Positions 5,365-58,849 of a stretch of 64,000 nucleotides of DNA are shown here, piece after piece. The position numbers and the translations under genes are program-made. The notes below the pieces were generated by a model that saw only the letters and a program-made list of their open reading frames with translations, was not told where the DNA came from and made no database searches. The stretch comes from an uncultured Actinomycetota bacterium (GTDB lineage: Bacteria > Actinomycetota > Actinomycetes > Streptosporangiales > Streptosporangiaceae): positions 298,767-362,766 of the forward strand of contig CAVYDE010000008.1 of assembly GCA_963767215.1 (NCBI GenBank), given 5' to 3'. How positions within the stretch are numbered: position 1 is the first letter of the stretch; each line of letters starts with the position of its first letter.

Positions 5365-5420
5365 CCGGCGCCAGTCGGCGTGGTTCGCTCGACTCGCCGG
5401 CGTGCTGATGATCGTGGGCG

Positions 5421-5464: not shown

Positions 5465-5492
5465 GTCACTGCGCTGGCGGTTCCGGCCGGAA

Positions 5493-7357: not shown

Positions 7358-7409
7358 GTGACGACCTCCTGGTTGGTCTGGTGCCCTCGCCGCAGGATGC
7401 CGAGAGACC

Positions 7410-7460
7410 TGATGTCAGCTACTGACATCACAGTACCACTTGATGACAGCTACTGTCATC
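7410..7460. promoter_or_regulatory. two tandem perfect palindromes, candidate TetR operators
   Basis: TGATGTCAGCTACTGACATCA (7410-7430) and GATGACAGCTACTGTCATC (7442-7460), in the 121-bp divergent SDR/TetR intergenic region. Confidence 0.6.
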
Positions 7461-7478
7461 GGGCTGTAGGGTCGGAGC

Positions 7479-8066
7479 GTGAACCGGTGGCAACCCAACG
7501 CACGCGGCCGTCTTGAGCAAGCGGCCATGGAGCTGTACCGCGAGCGCGGGTTCGAGAGCACCACGGTCGCGGAGATCGCCGAGCGGGCAGGCCTCACCGA
7601 GCGGACGTTCTTCCGCCATTTCGCCGACAAGCGCGAGGTCTTGTTCGCAGGCGCGAGCACTCTGCAGGAACTCCTCGTCCGGCTCGTGGACGAGGCGCCC
7701 GCCGCGCTGCCTCCGATCGAGGCGATCGGTACCGCGCTCGGCGGGGTTGCCGCTGCCGTGTTCGACGAGCGCCGCGAGGGCTCGCGAAGCCGCCAGTCCA
7801 TCGTTACCGCGAACGCCGAACTTCGGGAACGCGAGCTGATCAAGCTCGCATCGCTGGCGGCGGCGCTCACCGACGCGCTGCGACGGCGCGGCGTGAAAGA
7901 CCCGGCAGCGCCGCTGGCCGCCGAGGCGGGCATCGCGGTCTTCAAGATCGCTTTCGAGAACTCGATCGCCGGCAGCGGCGATCGGACGCTGTCGGACGTC
8001 ATCAGGGAGTCCATGGCGGAGCTGAGGGTCGTGACCGGCGGGCGAGCACCGGCTGCTCGTCGCTGA
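7479..8066 (+). CDS. TetR/AcrR family transcriptional regulator
   Basis: GRLEQAAMELYRERGFESTTVAEIAERAGLTERTFFRHFADKREVLF, a canonical TetR HTH. Confidence 0.9.
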   Translation: MNRWQPNARGRLEQAAMELYRERGFESTTVAEIAERAGLTERTFFRHFADKREVLFAGASTLQELLVRLVDEAPAALPPIEAIGTALGGVAAAVFDERREGSRSRQSIVTANAELRERELIKLASLAAALTDALRRRGVKDPAAPLAAEAGIAVFKIAFENSIAGSGDRTLSDVIRESMAELRVVTGGRAPAARR

Positions 8067-8136
8067 GAGTCGGTCAAGCAGACACTGCCCGCCGCCAGCC
8101 GCGGAAATGCCGTGCTAGCACGACGCCGACCACAGT

Positions 8137-8517
8137 TTGCACTATGATGCTGCTGTGAATAGCACTAGACCCACAGTTGAGATTGACCCGCTGAGCCCCG
8201 TTCTGCTGCACGAGCAGGTGGCGGCGGCCATCAGGCGGGCCATCATCGACGGCGAGATCGTCTCCGGCGAGCGCATGCCCCCGGCGCGGGACTTGGCGGC
8301 GGTGCTCGGCGTCAATGCCAACACGGTATTCCGGGCATTGCGCGCGCTGCGCGACGAAGGGATTGTCGAGTTCCGCCGCGGTCGCGGCGTTACTGTCACC
8401 GGCCTCGCGCCGCAGCGCAGCGCGGTGATGGTGAAGGCACGCGAGTTCGTGACGCTGGCGCGCCGATTCGGATACCGGCCGGACGAAGTGGCCGACATCA
8501 TCCAGCAGCTGCTCTGA
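8137..8517 (+). CDS. GntR family transcriptional regulator (short YtrA-like type)
   Basis: LHEQVAAAIRRAIIDGEIVSGERMPPARDLAAVLGVNANTVFRALRALRDEGIVEFRRGRGVTV winged-helix motif. True start may be GTG 8155 (see finding). Confidence 0.85.
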   Translation: MHYDAAVNSTRPTVEIDPLSPVLLHEQVAAAIRRAIIDGEIVSGERMPPARDLAAVLGVNANTVFRALRALRDEGIVEFRRGRGVTVTGLAPQRSAVMVKAREFVTLARRFGYRPDEVADIIQQLL

Positions 8518-8529
8518 GGAGGTTTCGCG

Positions 8530-9789
8530 GTGGCGACAGTTGAGCTGTATCCAGCGCCCCGCCGCGATGCGGAGGCGCTGATCAAGGAGGCACGCCGCCG
8601 TCAGCGCCGGCGCTATCTTGGCGTCGGGCTGGCGATGCTGGCCGCCGGCGCCACAGTTGCCGGCAGCTTGGCTGGCGGGGCCGGCCATGTCCGGCGGCAC
8701 AGCACTCCGCGACCCCGGATATCTTCCGGCCACCGAGTTCGGTCCCCGAGAGTTGAGCCTTCTGCGCCGGCGATCCCGGCCAGCACCGGCACGACGGTCT
8801 TGTTGTGGCCGGCCAGCTATCCGATGTTCACGGCGGACGGCGGACCGCCGGCCTACCTGGACAACCTGACCACCGGCAAGCTTGCGGCGACCGGGCGCCC
8901 CGCGATCAGCGCCGGCGACTTCCAGCCGCTGCTGATCACGGTCGGCCGCTATTTCGTTTACGTCGGCGATGGCACCACGGTCATCCGCAGCGACCTCCGG
9001 GGGCGGCCGCGGGTGCTGGCGAAGACGCCGTTCTTCTTTCCGTCGGCTGTGCCTGGCCATGTCTGGCTTGGCGGCCTCCAGCCCGCGCACAGCTCGCGTC
9101 ACGTCGCGCGGCTGGCATCAGTGACGGGTGGTCCGCTCGGGCCGCCGGTCACGCTGCCGCCGGACACACAGCTGATGCGCGGGACCGACGGAGGTCTGCT
9201 GCTGCAGAACTTCTCGGTCCATGGCTCGGCATTGGAGTTGTGGGATCCCGGCAGCGTGCCTCGGGCGTTGCCGTTCCGACCGAACCCGTTCGATGGCTTC
9301 GGCGCCAGCGCGCGGCTGGTCGAGTACGGCACCGGCTGCGTGAGCCTGGCCGGTTCGGCCGCGACCGGTGGCTATGACGTCTGCCACATGCTGCGGATCT
9401 ACGACGTGAGCACGGGCAGGGTCCTGTCGTTCCGTACGCCGCCTGGTACGGCAGGCTGGGTGCCACCGGGGTTCAATCTTGACCAGCCGATCTCGCCGGC
9501 GAATGCGATGGTGGCGGCAGAGGCTGCGTTGCCGTCTGCTCACGAGGATCGCGGCCGGCTGTACGTTGTGCAGCTGAACAGCCGCCACCGCGGTCCTCGC
9601 GCCGTCCCTCGCTCGGCCGGCTTCGTGCGGATGAGGGTGGCCTGGTCGGTCCGCGGCAACTGGGTGTTCTTCCAGGGCCCGGGCGGTCTCCTGTGGGCCT
9701 TTCAGCCGCTGACCGGTAGCCTGCGGGCGTCGCGCACTCCGTGCTGTCAGTACTCGATCATGGCCGCGGTACCAACCGGTCCCAGCTAG
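8530..9789 (+). CDS. membrane-anchored protein of unknown function
   Basis: 419-aa ORF 13 nt after the GntR gene. N-terminal RRRQRRRYLGVGLAMLAAGATVAGSLAGG anchor; the rest is rich in beta-strand-like segments. No family recognised. Confidence 0.55.
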   Translation: MATVELYPAPRRDAEALIKEARRRQRRRYLGVGLAMLAAGATVAGSLAGGAGHVRRHSTPRPRISSGHRVRSPRVEPSAPAIPASTGTTVLLWPASYPMFTADGGPPAYLDNLTTGKLAATGRPAISAGDFQPLLITVGRYFVYVGDGTTVIRSDLRGRPRVLAKTPFFFPSAVPGHVWLGGLQPAHSSRHVARLASVTGGPLGPPVTLPPDTQLMRGTDGGLLLQNFSVHGSALELWDPGSVPRALPFRPNPFDGFGASARLVEYGTGCVSLAGSAATGGYDVCHMLRIYDVSTGRVLSFRTPPGTAGWVPPGFNLDQPISPANAMVAAEAALPSAHEDRGRLYVVQLNSRHRGPRAVPRSAGFVRMRVAWSVRGNWVFFQGPGGLLWAFQPLTGSLRASRTPCCQYSIMAAVPTGPS

Positions 9790-9828
9790 ACAAGCCAGAA
9801 CGGCCGGCCGGTCGGTACTCTCGAAGAG

Positions 9829-9965
9829 TGAACTTCGCCGAGTGCCCAGACGATGGCACCCGCCTCAAGGCCGTGCAGGTACGGCCGCCGCCGCCGCTGC
9901 TGGTGTGCCCGACTTGCGGCAAGCGATATGAGCTGACCGACCGAGGAATCGTCGAGGTACCCTAG
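9829..9965 (+). CDS. possible small zinc-ribbon protein
   Basis: VNFAECPDDGTRLKAVQV...LVCPTCGKRYELTDRG contains a C-x-x...CPTC ribbon-like pattern. Start uncertain. Confidence 0.3.
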
Positions 9966-10167
9966 CGAACGCGAGTCTGAGGCATTCGCTGAGACAGCGA
10001 GAGACTTGCTGTCCGGAGGCGGGCGCACCCCCGGCGCACCAGCGGGTCACCGAGCTCGCGCCTCGCGTCATGCAGTCTGACACCGGCCGCGGGACGGCGG
10101 AGTTGAGTACCTCTACCTAAGTACGGCTACTCTGGCGGGGCCGGCGCGGAGCGATCATCGTTGTCTC

Positions 10168-10809
10168 ATGATGCCGGAAGATCGGCCGCGGGCATGGCGG
10201 CTTGTGCTGTTGCGCAGGGCTCTGCTCGCCTTCGCAGTGCTGGCTTCGGTCGCGCTCGCTGCGGTGCTCGGATTCGCCGTGTACTTGTTCGCCGCGGGTT
10301 ACTCAGGCGGCAGCGACCCGCAGAGCGTCGCGCCGCTGGCCTTCCCGCTGTCTTTTCTCCTGGTGATAGTCGTCGGCTTTCCGGTGGCGCTCGTCTGTGT
10401 ACTGGCCTGGGTTGGCTATCTCGCCGCGGCTCGCAGAAGCGGCCTGGCCGCCGAAGTGAATCTTCGCCGCGCACTGGCAACCGGTGCGCACCGGCCGCCG
10501 GCCACCGGGCACCGGCCACGTACCGGCCATCGTGCGCACCTGCCACCGGTCCGGCTGCCACTACTCGGGTGTTCCGGCCGCCGGTTCCTTGGCTGCCATG
10601 GTGAACAGTTCGGCGTAGTCGTAGGCGGCCTCGGGCTTCGCGCGGACCGCCGCGTCTATGGTCCTGGCGTCCTCGCCGATGAGGATCCGCCAGGCTCCGG
10701 ATCGCACTCCGTCGAGGATGAGGGTTGCCGCCTCAGCCGCGCTGACCGGCGCCTTGTCCCGGAAGTCGGTGTTCGCCCGCGCGAGCAGCTGGCGCAGCGC
10801 ATCGGCTGA
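10168..10809 (+). CDS. membrane protein of unknown function; 3' end doubtful
   Basis: Three hydrophobic helices (LLRRALLAFAVLASVALAAVLGFAVYLFAAG, LAFPLSFLLVIVVGFPVALVCVLAWVGYLAAA). The last ~250 nt overlap the convergent SDR gene and are probably antisense read-through. Confidence 0.4.
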   Translation: MMPEDRPRAWRLVLLRRALLAFAVLASVALAAVLGFAVYLFAAGYSGGSDPQSVAPLAFPLSFLLVIVVGFPVALVCVLAWVGYLAAARRSGLAAEVNLRRALATGAHRPPATGHRPRTGHRAHLPPVRLPLLGCSGRRFLGCHGEQFGVVVGGLGLRADRRVYGPGVLADEDPPGSGSHSVEDEGCRLSRADRRLVPEVGVRPREQLAQRIG

Positions 10810-11553
10810 CCCGCCTTCGGCCAGCAGGCCAGCGCGGATCAGCGCGGCCTGCCTGTCGCGGGGGATCAGCTCTTCCACCTGGGCGTCGCTCATGTGCTCA
10901 GGCGCTGGCAGACCGCGGGCACGGAAGCTGTTGGCGATGATGTCGGTGCCGACGTGCCCCGGCATCACGACGACGGCCCGGACCTGCGGTGCGTTGACCC
11001 GCAGGTCCTCGATGAGCGCCTCGGAGAAGCCTTTCACGGCGAACTTGGCCGCGCTGTAGGCGGTCTGCGGCGCGCCAGGGCCCAGCGACGCCCAGAAGCC
11101 GTTCACGCTGCTGGTGTTGACGAGAACGCCGTCGCCGCTCGCGATCAGCAGCGGCACAAATACGCGGGCGCAGTAATAAACCCCCCACCAGTCGGTGGCG
11201 AACGTGTGCTCCCATTCCTGCCGCGAATCGCGGATGAAGCTGCTGCCGCCGCCGATGCCGGCGTTGCTGAACACCAGGTCGACGTGATCGCTGGCGTGCT
11301 GCGCCAGCAGCTCGTCGCGGAACCGCAGCACTTGCGTCTCATCAGCGACGTCGCAGAGGTGGCTGGTGACCCGGACTCCGGCCGGGCAGTCCGCCCGCGC
11401 CAGGGCTGCAGCCTGCGCGATGGTGTCGGCGTTCAGGTCACACGCCGCGACCGAGCATCCCTGCGCCGCCAGCTGGCGGACCAGCTCGCGGCCCATGCCC
11501 GAGCCACCGCCCGTCACCACCGCGAGCTTCCCGTCGAACGACCCCACAGCCAT
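10561..11553 (-). CDS. SDR family oxidoreductase
   Basis: GKLAVVTGGGSGMGRELV (TGxxxGxG), NAGIGGG, and a YSAAK active-site motif. Confidence 0.9.
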   Translation of the reverse strand: MAVGSFDGKLAVVTGGGSGMGRELVRQLAAQGCSVAACDLNADTIAQAAALARADCPAGVRVTSHLCDVADETQVLRFRDELLAQHASDHVDLVFSNAGIGGGSSFIRDSRQEWEHTFATDWWGVYYCARVFVPLLIASGDGVLVNTSSVNGFWASLGPGAPQTAYSAAKFAVKGFSEALIEDLRVNAPQVRAVVVMPGHVGTDIIANSFRARGLPAPEHMSDAQVEELIPRDRQAALIRAGLLAEGGSADALRQLLARANTDFRDKAPVSAAEAATLILDGVRSGAWRILIGEDARTIDAAVRAKPEAAYDYAELFTMAAKEPAAGTPE

Positions 11554-11623
11554 GATGGTTACCCGCAGTGCTTTCGTCAGTCAACGGCCCGGGCGCGACC
11601 GCCGGGAGACCGGCGGTCCGTGA

Positions 11624-12673
11624 TCAGGTGACCGGAGCCAGCGGCTGCCAGTCTGGCTCGGTGCCGGTCGTCAGCGCGCCTGCAATGATCGGCCCGATTG
11701 TCGGCGGAGAGTAGAGGTAGATTTTCGGCGTTCCCCGCACGTTCCTGACGTAGGCCAGGAACGTGCCCGACGGTGAGTACACCGCCTGGTACGCGCCGCG
11801 CAGGAACGGCGACGACTCGAGCGTGAGGTCGATCCCCTGGTGGGTGCAGCGACGCCCGGCGCACCTCTCCTGCGTGGTCAGTGCGTCGACGCTGAACATC
11901 GGGCTGTTCGGGTACCAGTCCGGGTCAAGCTGCCTGACCGGTTTCGCCGTCGCGCCTTCGCCGCTCGGGAAGCCGTTCCGGTAGTCGGATTGCGCGCCGA
12001 ATCCGAGCGCGCCCAGGCAGTAGGTGTGGCTGGGGCACCGCGGCGCCGTCGCGCCTTCGAAGATGATGAAGGATCCGAAACTGACGCCGGAGGCGTCCCT
12101 CGCCCAGGCCCAGGCGACGGCCGCCGGGAGCGCCGTCACCTTGATCTGCCGCCGTGTTGGCTGTTCTGAGTTAAACGGGGTGCTGAACGTCGCGAACCTG
12201 TGGCGCACCGTGTCGTACCTGGTCAGATACCCGTAGCCGGTGCCCTTCTTGGTCTTGACGTAGGCGAGGTAGCGCCCGTTCGGCGACCAGGTCGGGCGTG
12301 CATCGGTGTAAGCAGGCGCCTGGCCGGTGATCCGCTTCTTGTGGCTGCCGTTAGCGTCCATGATCCAGAGGTTGCCCTTATCCAGGTATGCCAGCCGCAG
12401 GCCATTCGGCGACCAGCGAGGTCCTGAATCATGCCCGTCGCGCGTGAGCCGGTCGACCGTCGAGCCGGGCGTGGCGCTTTCTGGGTTGATCGTATAGATG
12501 TTGCCGTTCCGGACGAAGGCGATGAGCCCGTCGGAACCGGGATACGCCGCCTGCGCGGTCCCCGCGACGCCGATGCTCAGCAACGCAGCGGTAGCCAGCA
12601 CTGCCGATCCTGCCGTCCACCACCACGCGCGGCTGCGTGCTGCGCCCGCGTTCTTTCCTTGCATGCCTGCCAC
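11624..12673 (-). CDS. secreted TolB-like PD40 beta-propeller repeat protein
   Basis: Signal peptide ending GTAQAAYP. Repeated PRWSPNGLRLAYL / PTWSPNGRYLAYV / AVYSPSGTFLAYV PD40-type motifs. Confidence 0.8.
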   Translation of the reverse strand: MAGMQGKNAGAARSRAWWWTAGSAVLATAALLSIGVAGTAQAAYPGSDGLIAFVRNGNIYTINPESATPGSTVDRLTRDGHDSGPRWSPNGLRLAYLDKGNLWIMDANGSHKKRITGQAPAYTDARPTWSPNGRYLAYVKTKKGTGYGYLTRYDTVRHRFATFSTPFNSEQPTRRQIKVTALPAAVAWAWARDASGVSFGSFIIFEGATAPRCPSHTYCLGALGFGAQSDYRNGFPSGEGATAKPVRQLDPDWYPNSPMFSVDALTTQERCAGRRCTHQGIDLTLESSPFLRGAYQAVYSPSGTFLAYVRNVRGTPKIYLYSPPTIGPIIAGALTTGTEPDWQPLAPVT

Positions 12674-27228: not shown

Positions 27229-27555
27229 TCAGCCAGATCCGGCTGGCTCCGGCCAGCTGCGCCGGTCCGGCTTCGCCAGCGGCCAGCCGCCCGCCGCGAG
27301 CCTCGACTTGACCCTGGCGATGTCGGAGTCGCTGGCCGTTGCATGGGTGACCGTCTTGATCGCCTCGCGGATCGCGTCGGCCGAATCGGGGTCGACACTG
27401 CTGGCCAGTTCCTCGGCGATCGTGCTGACGTCCGCATCGCTCAGCTGGCTGCCGAGCAAGGAGAACAGCGGGAGGTAGTCGACCCGTGGTACCCCCTCCG
27501 GGTACCCGGCCCGCAGCCAGCCGATGATCGAGCTGAGGAATGCGGACATCTCCAT
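27229..27555 (-). CDS. DUF3349 protein (M. tuberculosis Rv0543c-like), copy B
   Basis: MEMSAFLSSIIGWLRAGYPEGVPRVDYLPLFSLLG. RBS GGAAGGAG. Paralog of 28210..28506. Confidence 0.75.
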   Translation of the reverse strand: MEMSAFLSSIIGWLRAGYPEGVPRVDYLPLFSLLGSQLSDADVSTIAEELASSVDPDSADAIREAIKTVTHATASDSDIARVKSRLAAGGWPLAKPDRRSWPEPAGSG

Positions 27556-27583
27556 GCTGAGCTCCTTCCGGTACCGGCCGCGA

Positions 27584-27868
27584 TCACTTGGCGTGCGGGT
27601 GGCCCGCCTGGTAGATGGCGACGAGGCCCCATCCGATCGGGGCCAGCACGACCAGGAAACACAACCCGCCGGCAATCATGCCAGCAATGCTGCCGCCGAC
27701 CAGGGTGTCGGAAGTCTCGCCATCGGTCCCGGCGGTCGCTGCGCGCGCGCCGCCGGCCCGGCTGAGCGCCAGCATGCCGATCGCGAACAAGGCGGGCAGC
27801 CCCGCGCCGGCGATGAGGCCGACCACGACGATCTGCCAGAGTGCAGTCAGGTTAATCCAGGAGTTCAC
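27584..27868 (-). CDS. small two-TM membrane protein (Rv0544c-like), copy B
   Basis: VNSWINLTALWQIVVVGLIAGAGLPALFAIG... Paralog of 28552..28809 (MNSWINFRAIWEIVVIGLLAGAGLPAIFAIG). GTG start 27868. Confidence 0.6.
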   Translation of the reverse strand: MNSWINLTALWQIVVVGLIAGAGLPALFAIGMLALSRAGGARAATAGTDGETSDTLVGGSIAGMIAGGLCFLVVLAPIGWGLVAIYQAGHPHAK

Positions 27869-27887
27869 GGCTGTGCCGTCCTCTCGG

Positions 27888-28105
27888 TCAGGCCGCGGCC
27901 GGCTCGCGGGCCCCGGCAACGGACGGCGGAGCTACCGATCCTGTCCACTCCTCATTCACGTTGTCGTGGCCGACCCGGCTGCCACGAGAGCGCAGGTAGA
28001 TAGTCGTGGCGACCGCGATCAGCAGCACGAGATCGACGACGATGCCCGCGTCGCCGCCGATGATGTGGGCGAGGTAGTAGGCGCCCGCACCGGCAGGGGC
28101 ACGAT
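27888..28105 (-). pseudogene. 3'-terminal remnant of a second pit (phosphate transporter) copy
   Basis: Minus-strand translation PAGAGAYYLAHIIGGDAGIVVDLVLLIAVATTIYLRSRGSRVGHDNVNEEWTGSVAPP aligns with the Pit C-terminus GATSYFIANAIGGTLGIMVVLLILIGVSGVIYWRSRGTRVGPQNVNADWTGSVAPA. No upstream coding part remains. Confidence 0.6.
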
Positions 28106-28209
28106 CTAGCCGTAGGACTCACCAACTCCAGCCGCCAACAGTGCTCACCCGCCAGCGGGCTCAGCGACCATCCTCACCGAACCACCCGGCCGAGGACGCT
28201 CGATCGCTA

Positions 28210-28506
28210 TTAGCCGCCCGGCCCGGCAAGCGGCCAGCCGCCGGCGGCGAGCCGTGACCGGACCCTGGAGATATCACTGTCGCGCGGGTGCTCGTTAGTG
28301 ACAGCGTTGATCGCCGCATGGATAGTCGCCGCGTCGTGCTGGTCGCAGCTGTCTGCCAGTTCGTCGGCGATCTCCTTGACCTCCTCGTCGGTGAGGTGCC
28401 TGCCGAGCAGCGCGAACAGCGGGATGTAGTCGACATCAGGTACGCCTTCTGGGTACCCGGCCCTGAGCCAGCCGATGATGTCGGTCAGAAACGATGGCAA
28501 TGGCAT
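28210..28506 (-). CDS. DUF3349 protein (Rv0543c-like), copy A
   Basis: MPLPSFLTDIIGWLRAGYPEGVPDVDYIPLFALLGRHLTDEEV. Confidence 0.8.
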   Translation of the reverse strand: MPLPSFLTDIIGWLRAGYPEGVPDVDYIPLFALLGRHLTDEEVKEIADELADSCDQHDAATIHAAINAVTNEHPRDSDISRVRSRLAAGGWPLAGPGG

Positions 28507-28551
28507 GTGCGGAGATCCTCTCGGGCCCGGCTCCTTCTGCGGCCGGGCCGG

Positions 28552-28809
28552 TTACTTGTGGCCGGTGGCGACGATGATGTAGATGCCGTAGCCGACGGCG
28601 GCCAGCACCACTGCGAAGCACACAGCGGCGATGGCCACCCCGGCCGGGCTTCCGCCGACCACCTCGTCGTCGGACCCGGTGACGTGACCCTTGCCCGGCG
28701 CGCCGAGAACGCGGATGCCGATGGCGAAGATCGCCGGAAGCCCGGCCCCGGCCAGCAGGCCGATGACGACGATCTCCCAGATGGCCCTGAAGTTGATCCA
28801 TGAGTTCAT
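28552..28809 (-). CDS. small two-TM membrane protein (Rv0544c-like), copy A
   Basis: 85-aa ORF with two hydrophobic helices, 32 nt downstream of pit. Confidence 0.65.
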   Translation of the reverse strand: MNSWINFRAIWEIVVIGLLAGAGLPAIFAIGIRVLGAPGKGHVTGSDDEVVGGSPAGVAIAAVCFAVVLAAVGYGIYIIVATGHK

Positions 28810-28841
28810 TGCTCGCCCCCGTTTCTGCCGGGACCTGCTCG

Positions 28842-29996
28842 TCAGGCGGCCCTGCTGGTGACCGCCGGGTCGGCCGGCGCGACCGAGCCCGTCCAGTCGG
28901 CGTTGACGTTCTGCGGGCCGACCCTGGTGCCACGCGAGCGCCAGTAGATGACGCCGGATACGCCAATCAGGATCAGCAGGACGACCATGATCCCGAGCGT
29001 CCCGCCAATCGCGTTCGCGATGAAGTAGCTGGTAGCGCCCATGATTCCGGACGCGGGCAGCGTGATCAGCCAGGCAGTCGCCATCCTGCCCGCTACGTTC
29101 CAGCGCACCTCGGCGCCCCGCTTGCCGAGGCCGCAGCCGAGGATCGATCCGGTAGCCACCTGGGTGGTGGACAGCGAGTAGCCGAAGTGGGTAGACAACA
29201 AGATGATCGCCGCCGATGACGACTCGGCGGCCATGCCCTGCGGCGACTCGATCTCGACCAGGCCCTTACCCAGGGTCCTGATGACCCGCCAGCCGCCCGC
29301 GTAGGTGCCGGCCGCGATCGTGAGCGCGCAGATCACGATGACCCACAACGGCGTGCTCGCCCCGGCGGTCAGCGTGTGGTTGGCGATCAGGGCCAGCGTG
29401 ATGATGCCCATCGTCTTCTGGGCGTCATTGGTGCCGTGCGCCAGCGACACCAGGGATGCCGACCCGATCTGGCCGATGCGGAAGCCGCGATTGCGGCTGC
29501 CCTCGCGCATCGACCTGGCGATCCGGTAGATCAGGTACGTGCCGGTGGCGGCGACGAGCGCGGCGATGAACGGCGACAGGATCGCCGGGATGACTACCTT
29601 GGACACCAGGCCCTGCCACTTCACCGCGTGAGATCCGGCCGCGGCGAGCATGGCGCCGATCACCCCGCCGATCAGCGCGTGCGAGGAACTGGACGGGATG
29701 CCGAACAGCCAGGTGATGAGGTTCCAGACGATGGCGCCGGCCAGGCCGCCGAACACCACGGTCAGCGTCACCAGGCCGGTATCTACCAGGCCGCTGGCGA
29801 TCGTCGCGGCGACGCTCAGCGACAGGAACGCGCCGATCAGATTGAGCACCGCGGACAGGCCGACCGCGACCCTCGGGCCGAGCGCTTTGGTGGCTATGGA
29901 CGTCGCCATGGCGTTGGCCGTGTCGTGGAATCCGTTAGTGAAGTCAAACGACAAGCCGGTGATGATGACCAGCGCGAGGACGATGTCGTTGCTCAC
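28842..29996 (-). CDS. pit: inorganic phosphate transporter, PiT family
   Basis: LSFDFTNGFHDTANAMATSIATKAL and a second GTNDAQKTMGII repeat, the signature PiT motifs. GTG start after AGGAAGGG. Confidence 0.9.
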   Translation of the reverse strand: MSNDIVLALVIITGLSFDFTNGFHDTANAMATSIATKALGPRVAVGLSAVLNLIGAFLSLSVAATIASGLVDTGLVTLTVVFGGLAGAIVWNLITWLFGIPSSSSHALIGGVIGAMLAAAGSHAVKWQGLVSKVVIPAILSPFIAALVAATGTYLIYRIARSMREGSRNRGFRIGQIGSASLVSLAHGTNDAQKTMGIITLALIANHTLTAGASTPLWVIVICALTIAAGTYAGGWRVIRTLGKGLVEIESPQGMAAESSSAAIILLSTHFGYSLSTTQVATGSILGCGLGKRGAEVRWNVAGRMATAWLITLPASGIMGATSYFIANAIGGTLGIMVVLLILIGVSGVIYWRSRGTRVGPQNVNADWTGSVAPADPAVTSRAA

Positions 29997-30184: not shown

Positions 30185-30538
30185 TCAGGCCGCCGGGCCA
30201 GGGATACCACGTTCCAGCTGGTTGATGGTGATTTTTTCCAGCCGGAGCACGCGGGTGAGCTCGTCGATGACCTGCCGCCCGTCGATCGCGCCGCAGCTGA
30301 ACAAGTCGATGGCGATGAGGCTTTCTTCGGGCCAGGTGTGGATGCTGAGGTGCGACTCGGCCAGGATCAGCAACAGCGTGATCGCGCCGTTCGGAAAGAT
30401 GACGTGACTGGTGTCCAGCACGTGCCCGGAGCCGGACCGGACGGCGGCGACGGCCAGGTCGGTCAGCACCGCGACCTCGGTCACCGGCGAACCCGGCGTG
30501 CAGGCGGCGTCCACGGCATACAACCGCTTGGCCGACAT
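30185..30538 (-). CDS. speH: S-adenosylmethionine decarboxylase proenzyme, SpeH (pyruvoyl) type
   Basis: Last 117 codons of ORF 30185..31825: MSAKRLYAVDAACTPG...LLILAESHLSIHTWPEESLIAIDLFSCG, with the ES/SH self-cleavage motif. AGGAAG RBS before ATG 30538. Confidence 0.85.
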   Translation of the reverse strand: MSAKRLYAVDAACTPGSPVTEVAVLTDLAVAAVRSGSGHVLDTSHVIFPNGAITLLLILAESHLSIHTWPEESLIAIDLFSCGAIDGRQVIDELTRVLRLEKITINQLERGIPGPAA

Positions 30539-30692
30539 AGCTTCCTGGCGTCGCAGGTCGGTGTAGCTGCTCGCCGCTTCCATGCCCGGCATGATGTGCG
30601 AGGATACCGTACGGCCCGCTGACCAGGCCGGCCGGACCGGCGGACCGCTGCGGGATAACCCGCGGAGCGCGGGGGGCGAGAAGACGCAGCTC

Positions 30693-31961
30693 ATGGACGT
30701 GGACACGGTAGTCGCCGAGGTTGCCGCTGCCGTCGGCCTGGCGGAAGGTGAATCAGGCATCCGCGACATTCTGTCGGCCGTGCTGGACGCTGAGCCGGCC
30801 GCGGTCCGTGAGGTCTCGCGGCTGGCCGAGCTGCCGGTGCCGATCGTCGCGGCCGCCTGCAACGAACTGCGCAAGCGCGGCGTCATCGACACGAAGCGCC
30901 CAGTCCGGTTCACCGAGGCAGGCCGTGCCGCGGTCGCGGCCGCCACCGGCGGAGCGGCGATCCGGCCAGGCTGCACGGCCTGCGGCGGACGCGGCGTGCT
31001 GATCCCGCCGGCCCTGGACGACGTGGCCGCGATCATGCAGCTGGCCGCTGACGGCGCGCCCGCCGCCAAGGCCGAGCTCGACCAGACGCACTGCACCACC
31101 GCGACCAAGCTCAGCCGCGTGCTGCGGATGCAGCAAGCGCACGCGCTAGCTGGGCAGCGGATCCTGCTGCTCGGCGACGACGATCTGATCTCGGTCGCGA
31201 TCGCGCACTTTGCCGCGTGGTCGCAAACGGCAGGAACCGTACGCCGGCTCGCGGTCGCCGACACCGATACTGACGTCCTGGACTGGATCGGGGAGCAGAC
31301 GGCCGGTACCGGCGTGCAGGTCGAGCGGGTGCGCCATGATCTGCGCCAGCCGCTGCCTGAGACGCTGACGGCGAGCTTCGACGTGGTGCTGACCGACCCG
31401 CCGTACACGGTGGCGGGCGCCGAGCTGTTCCTGAGCCGGGCCGTGTCCGCCCTGGCGCCCGAGCCCGGCCGGCATGTCTTCTTCTCCTTCGGCGCGCGCC
31501 GACCGGACGAGACGCTCGCGATCCAGCAGGCGATCGCGGCGATGGGCCTGATGGTGCGGTCGCTGTCGGCCGGATTCAACGAGTACCTCGGGGCCGGCGT
31601 GCTGGCCGGCACCAGCAACCTGTACCACCTGCGCACCACGGAGAACGCGGCGCCGCTGATCGGCGGCGCATATGACGGGCCGCTGTACACCGCCGACAAC
31701 CGCGCCACGGTGACCCGGCCGTACCGGTGCGCCCAGTGCCGGGCCGTGCACGAGGTCGGTCCCGGTGCCCGCTGGCCGCAGATCGCCGTGCTGCAGGCTG
31801 CTGGCTGCCCGGTCTGCGGCGGCACGACGTTCCGGCCGATGCCGCTGGTCCAGCGCCGCGCCGCGGTCAGCGGGCATGCAGGGCATGCCGCCGACGGCGC
31901 GCCTGCGGGCGACGCCGGGCCTGCGGGGGACGGCGCGCGTGCCGGGGACGACGATGGCTGA
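30693..31961 (+). CDS. DUF43/BpsA-family aminopropyltransferase-like protein with C-terminal zinc ribbon
   Basis: RILLLGDDDLISVAI and FDVVLTDPPYTVAGAELFLSRA motifs characteristic of bis-aminopropyl-spermidine synthase. C-terminal CAQC-x24-CPVC. Start set at ATG 30693 to leave a divergent promoter region (ORF opens at 30582). Confidence 0.75.
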   Translation: MDVDTVVAEVAAAVGLAEGESGIRDILSAVLDAEPAAVREVSRLAELPVPIVAAACNELRKRGVIDTKRPVRFTEAGRAAVAAATGGAAIRPGCTACGGRGVLIPPALDDVAAIMQLAADGAPAAKAELDQTHCTTATKLSRVLRMQQAHALAGQRILLLGDDDLISVAIAHFAAWSQTAGTVRRLAVADTDTDVLDWIGEQTAGTGVQVERVRHDLRQPLPETLTASFDVVLTDPPYTVAGAELFLSRAVSALAPEPGRHVFFSFGARRPDETLAIQQAIAAMGLMVRSLSAGFNEYLGAGVLAGTSNLYHLRTTENAAPLIGGAYDGPLYTADNRATVTRPYRCAQCRAVHEVGPGARWPQIAVLQAAGCPVCGGTTFRPMPLVQRRAAVSGHAGHAADGAPAGDAGPAGDGARAGDDDG

Positions 31962-32436
31962 GCCGGCTGGCCGGTACCTCGTCCGCCCGGCCGCAGACGG
32001 CGACGTCGAGGCGATCGTCGGCTACGAGATCGAGATCGCGGTCATCTCGTTCGCCGAGGGTGCGATCACCGATCCCGCGCTGCACCGCAGGCGGGTGACC
32101 GGCGCGATCGGCAAACCTGGTGAGATCACGCTGGTCGCCGTCGCGCGCGACGAGCCGGATACGCCAGTCGGCTGGGCCTGGCTGTCCGCCAGGACCAACT
32201 CGCTGACCGGCGACCGGTACGGCAACTTCCGCTCGCTGGCCGTGTCCGACGTGCCGGACCGCAGCATGGTCGGCGAACTGCTCATGGCAGCCGTGCTGGC
32301 GGCGGCCGACGATGCCGCGATGACGCAACTGACGGGCAAGGTGCACGCGGGCAACCTCGGCATGCGCGCGCTGTACCGGAAGTTCGGCTTCACCGCGACG
32401 CACCTGACCATGGAGCGCAAGGCGGACGCCCCGTGA
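31954..32436 (+). CDS. GNAT family N-acetyltransferase
   Basis: MAEPAGRYLVRPAADGDVEAIVGYE...FRSLAVSD...GNLGMRALYRKFGF. ATG overlaps the upstream stop (ATGGCTGA). Confidence 0.75.
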   Translation: MAEPAGRYLVRPAADGDVEAIVGYEIEIAVISFAEGAITDPALHRRRVTGAIGKPGEITLVAVARDEPDTPVGWAWLSARTNSLTGDRYGNFRSLAVSDVPDRSMVGELLMAAVLAAADDAAMTQLTGKVHAGNLGMRALYRKFGFTATHLTMERKADAP

Positions 32437-33524
32437 CCGCCCTGATCAAATGCGTGGTGTGGGATATCGACAACACGCTGCTGGACGGCGTCTACCTGGA
32501 ATCGACTGCGCAGCCGCCGCCGGCTGACCAGGAGCTGCTCGGCGTCCTGCGCGAACTGGCTGGCCGGGGCATCCTGCACGCGATCGCCAGCCGCAACCCG
32601 CCGCAGGCGGTGCAGTACGTCAGGCAGCTCACTGGCGTCGACTTCGCCGCCGCCGAATGCGGCTGGGGAAGCAAAGCGGAGTCGGTCGGCCGGATCGCGG
32701 CGGAACTGGGCCTGGCGCCGGATTCGATGGCTTTTGTCGATGACGACCTAGCTGAACGCGCCGAGGTCTCGGCCGCCTGGCCGGCCGTGCTGGTGCTGAG
32801 CCCGCAGGACGCGGCGGAGGCAGCGGACTGGCCGCAGTTCAGCCCGGCGGTGGTCACGGCCGAGGCGAGCCGGCGCGGTGCCATGTACGCCGAGCGCCGC
32901 CGCCGGCAGGCCGCGGCGGGCGAGTTCGCCGGCTCGCGCGATGATTTCCTGCGCCAGGCCGGGACGCGGATCACGATCGGCCCGGCGGTGCCCGCGGACG
33001 TGCCCAGGCTGCATGAGCTCACGGTCCGTACGCACCAGCTCAATTCGGCAGGCCAGCCGCGGACCGAGGCGGCGCTTGCCAGCGTGATCGGCTCGGCCGA
33101 TCAGCAACTCGTGACCGTCACCCTGGCCGACGACTACGGCGATGACGGCCTGGTGGGGGGAGCGATCCTGGCCAGGAACGTAGCAGGACCGGCGCCGGTG
33201 CCGTCGTCGGCTTCGTCGCTCTCCGCTGGCGCGCCGCCGGTGCCGATGACCGCTCCGCTGGTGATGATGTCCTGCCGGGCGCTCGGCCGCGGCGCGCTCG
33301 ACGCGCTGCTCGCCTGGCTTTGCCGGCTCGCCGCTGCCGGCGGAGCGGCCGAGCTGCAAGTGCCGTGCCTGGTCACCGAGCGCAACGTGCCCATGCGGCT
33401 GGCACTTGCCGCAGCCGGATTCCGGGCGGCGCCCGACTCGATCGCACCTGACGGCCGTGCGATCTTCGCCAGGTCCCTCACCGGGGAGCTGCCTCCGCTG
33501 GCGGACTGGGTGACCGGCCGATGA
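32433..33524 (+). CDS. HAD-superfamily phosphatase subfamily IIIC / FkbH-like domain protein
   Basis: VVWDIDNTLLDG (DxDxT), ASRNPP, MAFVDDD, then a C-terminal GNAT-like half. GTGA start/stop overlap with the GNAT gene. Confidence 0.7.
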   Translation: MTALIKCVVWDIDNTLLDGVYLESTAQPPPADQELLGVLRELAGRGILHAIASRNPPQAVQYVRQLTGVDFAAAECGWGSKAESVGRIAAELGLAPDSMAFVDDDLAERAEVSAAWPAVLVLSPQDAAEAADWPQFSPAVVTAEASRRGAMYAERRRRQAAAGEFAGSRDDFLRQAGTRITIGPAVPADVPRLHELTVRTHQLNSAGQPRTEAALASVIGSADQQLVTVTLADDYGDDGLVGGAILARNVAGPAPVPSSASSLSAGAPPVPMTAPLVMMSCRALGRGALDALLAWLCRLAAAGGAAELQVPCLVTERNVPMRLALAAAGFRAAPDSIAPDGRAIFARSLTGELPPLADWVTGR

Positions 33525-33796
33525 CGGCACCGGACGCCGGGATCCTCGCCGAGCTGCGGCAGATCCTGGCCGCGGTGACTGGCCGCGACGACCTGCTGGA
33601 TATCCCGGCCGGGACCGCGCTGTTCCGCGAGGGCGCGGGCCTGGACTCGCTGACCGGCACGCTGCTGCTGCGTCAGGTGCAGCGACGGTACGGCGTGGAT
33701 GTAGCCGGCGAAGATCTCAACCTGGACGCGCTCGAAACGCTCGGCACGCTCGCGGCCTTCATTACCTCTCGTCGCGGGCTCACAGGCTCAGGCTGA
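33521..33796 (+). CDS. acyl carrier protein
   Basis: 91 aa with LFREGAGLDSLTGTLLL (DSL phosphopantetheine site). ATGA overlap with the upstream gene. Confidence 0.8.
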   Translation: MTAPDAGILAELRQILAAVTGRDDLLDIPAGTALFREGAGLDSLTGTLLLRQVQRRYGVDVAGEDLNLDALETLGTLAAFITSRRGLTGSG

Positions 33797-34817
33797 CCCG
33801 GCCGTGACCGGCTGCGTGCAGGCTGGTGCCGAGGTTGGCGGAGGCGGCAGTCAGCTCCGTCATCGCCGCGACGGCCTGTTCGCCGCCGACCGGGCGCGGG
33901 TCGTTTCGGGCGTCGCGCCGCACTAGGTGCGCGGTGAGCCCGGTCAGCTTGCCGCCGTCGACGTCAACCAGCACGACCAGGCCGTCCAGGTAACGCCCGC
34001 GCATGCTGGCCCAGTCGAAGACCAGGTTGCCCAGGCTGTACAGGACTGGGCGGCCGCCGTAGACCTCGATTGCCTGCACCGAGTGCGGACCGTGCCCGAG
34101 CACGATGTCGGCGCCGGCGTCGACTGCCGCGTGCGCGATCTGCCGCTGGTAATCCAGCGGTCGCGGTCCTGGCACCCCCCAGTGACACGACAGCACGACG
34201 ACATCGGCGTGCTGGCGCAAGTCGCTCACCGCGGCCTGCATCAGGGTCAGCTGTTCGGCGACCGCGACGGTGACGACCTTCGGCGGCCTGCCGGGAACCT
34301 CGTTCACCCGCGGATCGGGGGTGTAGGAGGTAACCGCCTGCAGTACGCAGACGCCAGGCAGGTCGGCGGTCGCGGCATGCCCGTACGGGAAGGCGATGGA
34401 GGTGTAGGCGACAAAGCCGTACCTGACCTGGTCCCTGACCACGATCAGCGGCTTGCTCGCGGCCGCCAGGTCAGGGCCGGCGCCGCAGTGCCCGATGCCA
34501 GCCCGGTCGAGCACGTCGAGGCTGGCCAGCATCGCGGCGGCCGGATAGGTGACGTTATTGGCGCAGCTAACCCCGTCTATGCCGGCTGCCGTCAGTCCGC
34601 GCACCATGCCAGGCTCGCTGTGAGTCCAGCCCGGCTTGTACAAGATGTCCGGCTGCCGCGGCTCGCCGCTCGTCCCGGCGAGCGGACCTTCAAGGTTCAC
34701 GAACCGGGCATCGGCCTGACAGAGCAGTTCGCCCAGGTGTCGCCAGGCTCCGGCCGGGTCAGGCCGCTGCAAGTTGACGTCGCCGCCGAGAAACAGTCGC
34801 TGCGCCACGTCCTGCAC
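33780..34817 (-). CDS. CapA family (PGA_cap metallophosphatase-like) protein
   Basis: RLFLGGDVNL...ARFVNLEGPL...VVVLSCHWGVP...DIVLGHGPHSVQAIEVYGGRPVLYSLGNLVFD. Start placed at GTG 34817; the longer ORF to 35174 overlaps the antiporter gene. Confidence 0.8.
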   Translation of the reverse strand: MQDVAQRLFLGGDVNLQRPDPAGAWRHLGELLCQADARFVNLEGPLAGTSGEPRQPDILYKPGWTHSEPGMVRGLTAAGIDGVSCANNVTYPAAAMLASLDVLDRAGIGHCGAGPDLAAASKPLIVVRDQVRYGFVAYTSIAFPYGHAATADLPGVCVLQAVTSYTPDPRVNEVPGRPPKVVTVAVAEQLTLMQAAVSDLRQHADVVVLSCHWGVPGPRPLDYQRQIAHAAVDAGADIVLGHGPHSVQAIEVYGGRPVLYSLGNLVFDWASMRGRYLDGLVVLVDVDGGKLTGLTAHLVRRDARNDPRPVGGEQAVAAMTELTAASANLGTSLHAAGHGRVSLSL

Positions 34818-53923: not shown

Positions 53924-54125
53924 ATACCCGGACTGCGGGGATCTGCTGCACCCCTGACTACAGTACTTTCACACAGTCGGCCCAAACCCCTCAGCGCGCG
54001 CGGCGATATGGCGTTGAGTGCGGCTTATGTGAAAGCACAAGCGCAGCTCGCCGATCGCGAGCGCCTACTCGGCCGGTCTGGAACGGCATCGAGCGCGTCT
54101 CGGGTAGGCTTCGGTCTGCTGAACA

Positions 54126-54290
54126 CACCACCGGGAGAGTCTTCGCGCAGCCAGCGCGAGGCGCCGAAGGGGCAACCTCCCCGGAACCTCTCAGGCACCC
54201 AGGACCGGGCGGTGTACGCACTCTGAAGCCCGCGCGCGAGCGGGTCGACAGAGGGGGAGTCAGTCACCGTGCACACGCGGGCGCCAGCCC
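54126..54290 (+). promoter_or_regulatory. glycine riboswitch (one clear aptamer plus downstream stem-loops) in the gcvP leader
   Basis: CACCACCGGGAGAGTCTTCGCGCAGCCAGCGCGAGGCGCCGAAGGGGCAACCTCCCCGGAACCTCTCAGGCACCCAGGACCGGGCGGTG carries the conserved GGAGAG ... CGCCGAAGGGGCAA ... CUCAGGCA...GGAC elements. Lies directly upstream of gcvP. Confidence 0.8.
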
Positions 54291-54306: not shown

Positions 54307-57147
<2,841 letters not shown>

Positions 57148-57295: not shown

Positions 57296-58849
57296 CTAGT
57301 GTTCCGCGTCCAGTCCGTGCCACGCGGGGACCCGGACCGTGCGATGGCCGGGCTTTCCGCTGATGATGACCTTGCGGAGCGAGATGTCGTTAGCCGAACT
57401 CACCTCGTGCAGCAGGTGCTCAGGGTTAGCGATGATCTCGATGTAGTAGGTGCCGTCCGGCAGCTGAGTGATGTCGAACGACTGGTGCGGAACCTGCTGC
57501 TCGTAGGTGTCACCCCAGCCGAGTGGCAGCAGTTCCTGCACCCAGAGCGCGGTCTGCTGCCCGCAGTTGCCGACGATGCCCGTGTACTGCGGCTGCCAGG
57601 TAGCGCCGCGCAGCAGCATGTCGACGCCGTCGGTGGGCGCAATGCAGAACCCGATCTTCTGGCTGACGACGACAGTCTTCTTGTGGGCGTTGAGCAGCCG
57701 GTACTGCGCGAACTGCTGGAAATGCCAGCTGTTGTATTCGGAGAATCCCATGGTCCCCACCGGCGCCCGCCCGATGAGATGCCCGTTCTGCCAGAAATAC
57801 TGGTATGCGCGCATGAGGTCGGACCCGTTGTTCCTGAATCCCTCGACGTCGAGCTTAGCGTGCCCGGCGATCCAAACGGTGGCGCCGAAATCCAGATAGC
57901 CGGTGCCGCTCTTTTGGTTGGTCACCGAGATTCCCCAGGACGGCAGCGGAATGAGATCAGGCAGTGTGTCAGCCGGCGGCTTGCTGAGCGTGGGTACCGC
58001 GGGCAGGCTCCGGAGCGCCGGATGCGCTGCCCCGGCGGCGTGGCTTGTCGTGGCGGCGACGAAGTGCTCGGGGACAGGTGCCACACGTGCCGCGTCGCAG
58101 CATCCCTCCGGGCTACAGCACTGCGAGGCGTTGATGACCTTCATCGTGACGCTGGCCGTCGCATCACGGGCGGCGATGCCGAACAGGTGCTGGTACGTCG
58201 GCTCGATGCTCTCGGAGAGCTTGTAGGTGCCGAGGCCGAGCTTGTAGCCGCGGAAGTCGACAGGGTCAGCTGCCCAGCCTCGGGCCAGGCCCCAGACCTC
58301 GCCCAGGGAGAACGGGTCAGAGGCTGAGCATTGGTTGGGATAGCGCGAGGTCAGCGCGCTGTCAGCGGTCGCGCGCGACAGTTCGAAGCCGGCCGGGCAG
58401 AAGGTGAGGCTGTTGCTGGCGACGACTTTGCCCTTGCTGTTGCGGATCGTGATCTTCAGGAAGTGCCGCAGCCCGGTCCACCGCGCCAGTATTTGCGGCG
58501 GGAGCACGCGCCGCTGCGTCGTCACGCCCTGCAGGTTCTTGATCACCTGGGTGACCGTGAGCGGCCTGGTGTAACTTGCGCGGGCAACGTTCAGCTGAAA
58601 CGCGCCGCCAAGCGAAGCCACCCAGATGCCCGGGTCAACAAAGACCTCCTTGCCGAACCTTGCCACCTCGATCTTGTCCTGCGCGGCGATGAGCTTGATC
58701 CTCGGAGGCTGCGGAGCCGCGGCAAGCCGGGCGGCGCTATGGGCCGCCGGAGTGCCAACCGAGAAGATGCCGAAGACCAGCACTCCGAGTGCGACAGCTA
58801 ATGCAAAGACGCGCGATCGTGTTGAGACGAGTTCCTGCAATCTGCTCAC
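57296..58849 (-). CDS. secreted lysyl-oxidase-like domain protein
   Basis: N-terminal TM/signal. C-terminal ~200 aa align by eye to the LOX catalytic domain: LPDLIPLP, QKIGFCIAPTD (cf. HKASFCLEDT), GWGDTYEQQVPHQSFDITQLPDGTYYIEIIANP (cf. [32 protein letters not shown]). Confidence 0.65.
   Translation of the reverse strand: MSRLQELVSTRSRVFALAVALGVLVFGIFSVGTPAAHSAARLAAAPQPPRIKLIAAQDKIEVARFGKEVFVDPGIWVASLGGAFQLNVARASYTRPLTVTQVIKNLQGVTTQRRVLPPQILARWTGLRHFLKITIRNSKGKVVASNSLTFCPAGFELSRATADSALTSRYPNQCSASDPFSLGEVWGLARGWAADPVDFRGYKLGLGTYKLSESIEPTYQHLFGIAARDATASVTMKVINASQCCSPEGCCDAARVAPVPEHFVAATTSHAAGAAHPALRSLPAVPTLSKPPADTLPDLIPLPSWGISVTNQKSGTGYLDFGATVWIAGHAKLDVEGFRNNGSDLMRAYQYFWQNGHLIGRAPVGTMGFSEYNSWHFQQFAQYRLLNAHKKTVVVSQKIGFCIAPTDGVDMLLRGATWQPQYTGIVGNCGQQTALWVQELLPLGWGDTYEQQVPHQSFDITQLPDGTYYIEIIANPEHLLHEVSSANDISLRKVIISGKPGHRTVRVPAWHGLDAEH

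Follow-up and report, generated by a model that had tools for sequence, protein, structure and literature searches.

The 64,000-nucleotide (nt) stretch of DNA from an uncultured Actinomycetota bacterium analysed here, which we call the window and to which all positions refer, carries at 30185-34817 a locus in which a putative S-adenosylmethionine (SAM) decarboxylase gene lies divergent from an operon that joins a BpsA-like aminopropyltransferase to carrier-protein enzymes. On the minus strand, speH (30185-30592) encodes a 135-residue homologue of the class 1b pyruvoyl SAM decarboxylases (AdoMetDC). On the plus strand follow genes for a 422-residue BpsA-like protein of what we call the DPPY/zinc-ribbon subfamily (30693-31961), a 160-residue GNAT acyltransferase translationally coupled to it (31954-32436), a 363-residue FkbH-domain/HAD-IIIC protein made up of an N-terminal HAD phosphatase and a C-terminal GNAT-fold domain (32433-33524), and a 91-residue acyl carrier protein (ACP; 33521-33796). 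An earlier note on this DNA had described speH as divergent from four coupled genes, and the layout is as it claimed: the start/stop overlaps can be read directly (ATGGCTGA at 31954-31961, GTGA at 32433-32436 and ATGA at 33521-33524), and the quoted motifs ESHLSIHTWPE, GDDDL, TDPPYT, DIDNTL, FVDDD and GLDSL are all found. Pfam and NCBIfam profile searches, scored against model cut-offs, bear out its family assignments for SpeH (PF02675, 73.9 bits, cut-off 25), the DUF43/BpsA-like protein (PF01861, 123.3 bits, cut-off 27), GNAT (PF00583, 26.6 bits, cut-off 20.7), the FkbH-like protein (TIGR01686, 183.7 bits, cut-off 146.65), the ACP (PF00550, 41.8 bits, cut-off 20.8) and a convergent CapA-family neighbour taken up below. 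We consider it highly likely that the five genes, referred to here as the cassette, constitute one pathway that combines decarboxylated SAM (dcSAM) with a carrier protein. A polyamine-type product, acylated or glycerylated from the ACP, is the best-supported reading of that pathway, the product being one that we infer.

The case for a single pathway begins with conservation of the neighbourhood, which is kept in Streptosporangiales-like metagenome-assembled genomes (MAGs), in Streptomyces, Crossiella and Stackebrandtia, and on a gammaproteobacterial plasmid. The nearest relatives of the window are MAGs labelled Streptosporangiaceae or Actinomycetes, and the identical order, with speH divergent from bpsA-like, GNAT, fkbH-like and ACP genes, occurs in eight related-MAG loci (L001-L006, L016 and L017) whose BpsA-like proteins are 55-89% identical to that of the window. 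Searching genome contigs with the window protein by itself returned four close relatives only; a match in Nonomuraea (L009) was set aside as an unrelated paralogue without partner genes. In Streptomyces (L013) the BpsA-like and GNAT parts form one 612-residue protein, followed by FkbH-like and ACP genes and with speH divergent; identities to the window proteins are 45% (BpsA), 49% (GNAT), 36% (FkbH), 41% (ACP) and 36% (SpeH). Crossiella equi (L014) has a major facilitator superfamily (MFS) transporter gene directly upstream of the BpsA-like gene, then GNAT, FkbH-like and ACP genes with speH convergent, and Stackebrandtia soli (L015) carries all five. Plasmid p_2 of Microbulbifer (CP128432.1, Gammaproteobacteria) bears genes annotated as bis-aminopropyl spermidine synthase family, GNAT, HAD-IIIC phosphatase, an 81-residue ACP-like protein and speD. 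The 4-nt gene overlaps indicative of translational coupling are retained in L016, L013 and L014, and the FkbH-like subfamily is frequent in named Streptomyces, Crossiella, Salinactinospora and Streptacidiphilus, in part fused to ACP.

To sample beyond close relatives, metagenome contigs were searched, by means of a degenerate pattern, for DNA that could encode TDPPYTxxGxxLF; this gave a random sample of 120 loci, every one of which encodes a BpsA-like protein. GNAT and FkbH-like genes accompany it in 34 of these, with an ACP gene too wherever the contig extends far enough; the 34 are without exception high in guanine plus cytosine (GC; 0.68-0.78, the window itself having 65-75%), and their BpsA-like proteins are 48-78% identical to that of the window. 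A GNAT of the cassette type is encoded in 37 metagenome loci and an FkbH-like protein in 32 of them, the remaining five contigs ending within about 700 nt. Where at least 1.5 kb is available on both sides (n=27), SpeH is adjacent or fused in 16 loci and the complete cassette is present in eight. The flanking genes vary by lineage (PHO4/DUF3349, polysaccharide genes, the ergothioneine (egt) operon, thiolase or an MFS transporter), from which it follows that the five genes move together.

Some of these neighbours recur. Around twelve of the cassette loci (L096:1073-3061 and 11 more from metagenomes) have ergothioneine genes immediately next to speH, with EgtC-EgtD confirmed by Pfam and an EgtB-like open reading frame (ORF) recognised by eye, and a thiolase gene is found downstream of the ACP gene in another dozen (e.g. 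L077:3208-4968); both are probably lineage synteny and not members of the cassette. At the Stackebrandtia soli locus (CBCRZX010000035.1, 1-9146) the cassette is preceded by co-directional genes for a metallo-beta-lactamase-fold protein, a fatty-acid-desaturase-like di-iron protein, a flavin monooxygenase, a pyridoxal-phosphate enzyme of Cys/Met metabolism, a second ACP and a 227-residue protein, and this may be an extended biosynthetic cluster.

Natural fusions join the cassette proteins pairwise. Representative and homologue searches recovered BpsA-like-GNAT fusions (P0129, P0138, P0144, P0159, P0167, P0281, P0287 and P0365), BpsA-like-AdoMet_dc fusions (P0211, P0268, P0361, P0362, P0366 and several metagenome loci; Pfam E ~1e-39) and FkbH-like-ACP fusions (P0455, P0456, P0471, P0479, P0502, L042, L044 and L084); an in-frame fusion of ACP and SpeH, of 204 residues, is present at the Stackebrandtia locus. 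Because the arrangement recurs in distant genomes and its members are naturally fused, it lies far beyond chance, and the fusions together with the conserved 4-nt overlaps argue for a single process in which all five proteins take part. A further architecture, in which a BpsA-like protein with its zinc ribbon is fused to LPG_synthase_C (P0152, 713 residues; P0170, 702 residues), brings in the aminoacyl-tRNA-dependent transferase domain found at the C-terminus of MprF, and hints that some members of the BpsA-like family couple aminopropylation to aminoacylation. Pfam detects no LPG_synthase_C domain in four tested metagenome BpsA-like proteins of about 640 residues.

The BpsA-like protein shares its fold, its two-domain layout with an N-terminal winged helix, its dcSAM residues and its AdoMetDC partner with the BpsA enzymes of Thermococcus kodakarensis (Tk-BpsA) and Thermus thermophilus (Tt-BpsA; structures 5xnc and 6j27), to which it is about 25% identical. 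Its sequence matches 2qm3 and 5xnc in the PDB (E ~1e-25), and its AlphaFold2 model (pLDDT, the predicted local distance difference test, 88.9) has Tk- and Tt-BpsA as best Foldseek matches, 5xnc at the top (E 2e-22). When the subfamily profile is aligned to Tk-BpsA (5xnc), D126, the GDDD motif (D158-160), D225 and Y290 fall on invariant or near-invariant columns; the GDDD aspartates, which in BpsA bind the aminopropyl amine of dcSAM, are thus among the dcSAM-binding and catalytic aspartates that the subfamily retains. About 1,400 representative clusters match the protein, 201 of them at E <1e-30, and nearly all top cluster members have in common the GDDD and TDPPYT motifs and, at the C-terminus, a conserved Cys4 zinc ribbon (CxxC-22-CxxC). 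Their hosts, in contrast to those of Thermococcus and Thermus BpsA, are mesophilic, and include Clostridium botulinum, C. sporogenes, Paenibacillus, Brevibacillus, Aurantimonas and Streptomyces. According to a 2026 review (PMC12979288), orthologues of bpsA occur in thermophiles only; the review seems to have left the mesophilic DPPY subfamily out of consideration. Specific to the window protein is a 34-residue Gly/Ala/Asp-rich tail ending in GDDDG (residues 389-422, encoded at 31857-31961), which is disordered (pLDDT <50) and absent from 388-residue homologues; the region that encodes it overlaps that in which the relatives' GNAT gene begins.

Many family members consist of BpsA-like and SpeH proteins, or of BpsA-like, GNAT and SpeH proteins, without an ACP. 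GNAT is the ancestral partner of the DPPY subfamily, and FkbH and ACP are an add-on. Two branches without the add-on have neighbourhoods of their own. In the Clostridium sporogenes/botulinum group (L010/L011, 6389-10701) a BpsA-like and SpeH pair without GNAT, FkbH or ACP adjoins a gene for a Cfr-family 23S rRNA methyltransferase (686 bits), a Mor-family regulator, and group II intron and integrase fragments, and looks like part of a mobile region. On two low-GC metagenome contigs (L026, Ga0209727_1000987, ~2778-11406; L070, Ga0208958_1003315, ~7157-12115) a short TDPPYT-type BpsA-like protein of 315-317 residues is paired with SpeH beside folE and queD-, queE- and queC-like genes of 7-deazaguanine/preQ0 synthesis, together with genes for a DegT-type aminotransferase, glycosyltransferases and a NodU-like carbamoyltransferase; the aminopropyl acceptor in this branch may be a deazapurine or a nucleoside.

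The remaining partners carry the residues expected for the roles that we assign to them below. In class 1b AdoMetDC, in Thermotoga maritima numbering, S63 is the self-processing residue and H68 and C83 are catalytic (PMC10407285). The window SpeH aligns to the T. maritima enzyme (1tlu, E 2e-13) with equivalents of all three present (ESH..H..SCG). GNAT belongs to one subfamily, with conserved motifs, that is common to all BpsA-associated and BpsA-fused GNATs, and 10 of 10 orthologues match GNAT models. The pyrophosphate-binding motif A of GNATs (Q/R-x-x-G-x-G/A) binds through backbone atoms; it is degenerate in cassette members (D-R-S-x-I/V-G/A-E) and canonical (R-x-x-G-x-G) in some relatives without FkbH and ACP, a shift that would fit an altered acyl donor.

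FkbH/OzmB-type enzymes are glyceryl-ACP synthases. Across 50 homologues of the FkbH-like protein, D11/D13, K81, D103/D104 and S280-C281-R282 do not vary, and S53 is nearly invariant; C281 is presumably the residue that forms the acyl-enzyme, a role that we take from the OzmB literature. In the AlphaFold2 model of this protein (pLDDT 91.4) the HAD part is matched by Foldseek to 3slr and MDP-1 and the C-terminal half to GNAT folds, among them 8zt4 (SbzI-SbzG). The ACP gene always stands downstream of fkbH, or is fused to it, in every locus of sufficient length, and the phosphopantetheine serine (GLDSL) is retained in the Streptomyces, Crossiella, Stackebrandtia and Microbulbifer proteins. For neither the window FkbH-like protein nor P0476 is an exact-sequence match on record, and the exact window ACP sequence is found on a single 966-nt contig. 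The cassette encodes no thioesterase, condensation enzyme, ketosynthase or oxidoreductase, and the annotated parts of the window contain no polyketide synthase (PKS), nonribosomal peptide synthetase, speE or phosphopantetheinyl transferase. Since nothing else in the cassette could free the ACP of an acyl group, GNAT is the only plausible off-loader.

We propose the following pathway. SpeH would process itself to the pyruvoyl enzyme and, judging from the residues it retains, would decarboxylate SAM to dcSAM; with dcSAM as donor, the BpsA-like enzyme would aminopropylate a nitrogen nucleophile, which is probably not spermidine held in the way seen in archaeal BpsA. By analogy with FkbH and OzmB, the active-site cysteine of the FkbH-like protein would take up a three-carbon acyl phosphate such as 1,3-bisphosphoglycerate, its HAD domain would remove the phosphate, and the glyceryl group would be passed to holo-ACP. 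GNAT would then move the acyl group from the ACP either to an amine of the compound once aminopropylated or, ahead of that step, to its precursor, to give an N-glyceroyl, or hydroxyacyl, aminopropyl-amine. As a complete chain of steps, from SpeH-derived dcSAM to GNAT transfer, we hold this model tentatively, with somewhat less than even confidence; that the cassette makes an undescribed acylated, polyamine-like compound is probable. In relatives without FkbH and ACP, the BpsA-like, GNAT and SpeH trio would make the N-acetyl analogue with acetyl-CoA as donor, and those bearing LPG_synthase_C might draw the acyl group from aminoacyl-tRNA. The theme of aminopropylation with N-acylation explains the architectures of the whole family.

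Several observations weigh against a product of polyamine type made in exactly this manner. Tk-BpsA binds spermidine through E259, an acidic acceptor-site residue, and carries the aminopropyl group on a flexible acidic tail, E339-E345, in a ping-pong mechanism (PMC12979288). In the subfamily, the glutamate of the DPPE motif (E228 in Tk-BpsA) has become a near-invariant tyrosine (TDPPYT), E259 falls on a variable column that holds arginine in the window protein, and the acidic carrier tail has no counterpart in the profile, its place being taken by about 80 residues that end in the Cys4 ribbon. Because the dcSAM site is kept and E228, E259 and the acidic tail are not, we file the enzyme as a putative BpsA-fold, dcSAM-dependent aminopropyltransferase that is not an orthologue of archaeal or Thermus BpsA; the family assignment made in the earlier note stands. 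The acceptor probably differs from that of BpsA and may be no polyamine at all. A canonical branched polyamine is unlikely as the product, since both polyamine-binding glutamates and the acidic tail of the archaeal enzyme are replaced. To these points may be added that the cassette GNAT finds weak, generic matches among solved GNATs (best 4j3g, E 2e-5), and that glyceryl would be the loaded unit by analogy, on the basis of family membership only. Further points of this kind concern SpeH and are considered with the second of the alternatives that follow.

It is also conceivable that assembly takes place on the carrier, with glyceryl-S-ACP or a derivative accepting the aminopropyl group and GNAT acetylating, cyclising or releasing the tethered product. 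FkbG methylates hydroxymalonyl-ACP, and an operon that encodes a SAM-fold transferase along with FkbH and ACP recalls this methoxymalonyl-ACP logic; the Stackebrandtia ACP-SpeH fusion and the pairwise fusions of all partners suggest a tight complex around the carrier. We nevertheless regard such a route as unlikely, since the many family members without an ACP imply that the enzyme has no intrinsic need of a carrier-bound acceptor, since glycerate offers hydroxyl nucleophiles only, and since transferases that modify amino nitrogens are those in which the conserved DPPY motif is typically found.

A second alternative turns on SpeH, which might have been neofunctionalised to decarboxylate ornithine, arginine or another amino acid and so to supply the acceptor amine, with dcSAM coming from a housekeeping enzyme. 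SpeD homologues have become ornithine and arginine decarboxylases, and neofunctionalisation among them is widespread (PMC10407285). The window SpeH scores 74.6-75.2 bits against TIGR03330, the NCBIfam equivalog model for AdoMetDC, just below the cut-off of 75.65; the scores in the actinobacterial cassettes are 74.6, 73.7, 73.8 and 68.8 bits. In Streptomyces (L013:8115-8495) and Crossiella (L014:9287-9652) the motif with the catalytic cysteine, F(S/T)CG, is replaced by LLAYG, and AS or QS stands in place of ES at the self-processing site; the activity of these two cassette proteins may have diverged from that of AdoMetDC. The window SpeH, however, keeps the serine, histidine and cysteine equivalents within a core (ESHLSIHTWPE..DLFSCG) nearly identical to that of the T. 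maritima enzyme, and elsewhere BpsA-like proteins are fused or adjacent to canonical AdoMet_dc, not only in the fusions with Pfam E-values of 1e-39 but also in Microbulbifer and Clostridium, whose SpeH partners reach 124 and 138 bits against TIGR03330. A change of SpeH substrate seems to us improbable.

A third alternative is ordinary polyamine metabolism: the BpsA-like enzyme and SpeH would make a linear or branched polyamine, GNAT would acetylate it for homeostasis, and FkbH and ACP would be neighbours unrelated in function. NCBI and JGI do annotate the enzyme as a bis-aminopropyl spermidine synthase, BpsA-like and SpeH pairs exist alone, and GNAT polyamine acetyltransferases are common. The chance that this suffices is nonetheless slim, for FkbH and ACP strictly accompany GNAT of the cassette type (32 of 32 loci that are informative) and are translationally coupled, ACP can be fused to SpeH, the set recurs across phyla and flanking contexts, and the acceptor residues of true BpsA are not conserved.

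Least probable, we think, is a macromolecular or nucleobase target, in which the DPPY enzyme would aminopropylate an exocyclic or amide nitrogen in a protein, a nucleoside or a nucleic acid, leaving a pendant amine for GNAT to decorate. In its favour, TDPPYT fits (D/N)PPY, the motif IV of amino-group methyltransferases, where BpsA has DPPE, the enzyme has both a winged helix and a Cys4 ribbon, PADLOC gives it a weak match to the DNA-methylase-like mad2, and distant members with SpeH adjoin folE-queD-queE-queC. Against it, archaeal BpsA acts on spermidine with the same winged-helix domain, the chromosomal contexts are stable and free of restriction or phage genes, PADLOC defence models match none of the other proteins, and a small molecule is suggested by the MFS exporter encoded next to the cassette in Crossiella.

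Returning to the proposed acylated aminopropyl-amine pathway, its components come from known families, and it is their combination, together with the enzyme subfamily, that is uncharacterised. Relative to the Thermococcus and Thermus BpsA/SpeD systems, what is new beside the divergent acceptor site is coupling or fusion to GNAT and the addition of FkbH and ACP. With FkbH/FkbJ-type glyceryl-ACP formation the cassette shares TIGR01686, the HAD motifs, the SCR cysteine and a dedicated small ACP encoded downstream or fused. Systems of that type include those for methoxymalonyl-ACP in FK520 and ansamitocin, OzmB and the tetronate glyceryl-ACP synthases. Neither the annotated parts of the window nor the related loci contain FkbI/FkbK-type dehydrogenases, an FkbG O-methyltransferase, a PKS or tetronate enzymes; the partners here are instead an aminopropyltransferase, an AdoMetDC and a GNAT. 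Carrier-linked GNATs are known from SbzI-SbzG of altemicidin biosynthesis (8zt4), from CurA-type PKS loading domains and from LuxI-type acyl-homoserine lactone synthases, which use acyl-ACP and SAM. The cassette resembles them in placing a small GNAT-fold enzyme beside a carrier protein and in consuming a SAM-derived substrate, but its GNAT has no detectable specific sequence relationship to them. In another system, a dedicated AdoMetDC is reportedly paired with a homologue of the aminopropyltransferases, there a SpeE-fold protein fused to a membrane transporter, and the acceptor is probably no standard polyamine; the AdoMetDC-aminopropyltransferase pairing is common to both, whereas the present enzyme has the BpsA fold and is encoded alongside GNAT, FkbH and ACP. 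A literature search, for the most part outside the subscription journals, turned up no paper that connects AdoMetDC, DUF43 or the transfer of aminopropyl groups to FkbH, HAD-IIIC or glyceryl-ACP, and no characterised pathway with this gene set, in agreement with the earlier note.

The junction between the divergent genes contains a conserved non-coding element. A 27-nt block, GGCATGATGTGCGAGGATACCGTACGG (30588-30614), overlaps the speH start codon and does not vary in an alignment of seven loci, the proteins of which share about 75% identity; an exact 22-mer within it occurs in eight loci, and near-identical copies are present in almost all cassette loci with a divergent speH, at a variable distance from the bpsA ATG. 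The block includes the palindrome CCGTACGG and two TANNNT-like hexamers, TACCGT on the plus strand and TATCCT on the minus strand, the latter 8 nt before the speH ATG. As third-codon positions are invariant and no reading frame is conserved, the constraint acts at the level of DNA or RNA, and the element is probably a bidirectional promoter or operator, a putative assignment drawn from sequence; speH is possibly leaderless. An Rfam scan of the operon and its surroundings found no riboswitch and no family matching the block, and scans of the operon for sigma-70 and terminator consensus sequences yielded nothing useful. The block bears on the gene limits as well. speH most likely starts at the ATG complementary to 30590-30592, since this ATG lies inside the element, and so extends over 30185-30592; the resulting 135 residues match the 133-135 called in relatives. 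The bpsA-like gene starts at ATG 30693, where 388-residue homologues align from residue 1. An upstream ATG at 30582 was rejected both as the bpsA start and as a conserved upstream ORF, its frame not being kept in relatives and the third-codon positions being invariant.

Beyond the ACP gene lies a convergent gene for a CapA/PGA_cap-family metallophosphatase-fold protein (33780-34817, minus strand; PF09587, 173.5 bits, cut-off 27). The 17-nt overlap reported earlier is there, the ACP stop codon occupying 33794-33796 and the minus-strand stop of the CapA-like gene 33780-33782, but its listing alongside the operon does not make it part of the cassette: a counterpart occupies the matching position only in L016 and L017, the two closest relatives (BpsA 89% identical), and is absent from L001-L006 and from the Streptomyces, Crossiella, Stackebrandtia and Microbulbifer loci. 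It is a lineage-specific neighbour and not a core member. On the other side of the locus, at 27229-29996 on the minus strand, are two tandem pairs of DUF3349 and small membrane-protein genes with a single PHO4 phosphate transporter gene, unlike L016 and L017, where the PHO4/small-protein/DUF3349 module is present twice in full; the window appears to have lost a copy of PHO4. Farther away, a glycine riboswitch aptamer (RF00504, 50.9 bits, gathering score 32) at 54122-54217 on the plus strand sits upstream of a 946-residue ORF (54307-57147), and a 517-residue ORF at 57296-58849 on the minus strand has a C-terminal lysyl-oxidase domain (PF01186, 30.7 bits), a family uncommon in bacteria.

To our knowledge, dcSAM is normally thought to serve polyamine synthesis only. 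Through its operon structure and fusions, the cassette ties a BpsA-like enzyme with its own AdoMetDC to carrier-protein chemistry. We speculate further, while considering it rather doubtful that all three parts hold together, that the DPPY/zinc-ribbon enzymes are a large, unrecognised and mostly mesophilic family of dcSAM aminopropyltransferases whose acceptors are not classical polyamines; that the actinomycete cassette joins the dcSAM aminopropyl group to a carrier-delivered glyceryl unit, for example in an N-glyceroyl aminopropyl amide or a cyclised derivative; and that in other branches the DPPY enzyme may aminopropylate nitrogens of the 7-deazaguanine type or of macromolecules. Many culturable Streptomyces carry the cassette, among them strains of S. 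antibioticus, S. cacaoi and S. rishiriensis that encode P0389, P0392 or P0411, which makes the pathway directly testable. If the proposal is true, it would add a new use of dcSAM and a new role for GNAT enzymes in off-loading an FkbH-loaded ACP, and it would give a function to more than 1,000 proteins whose present annotation as 'bis-aminopropyl spermidine synthase family' is probably misleading.

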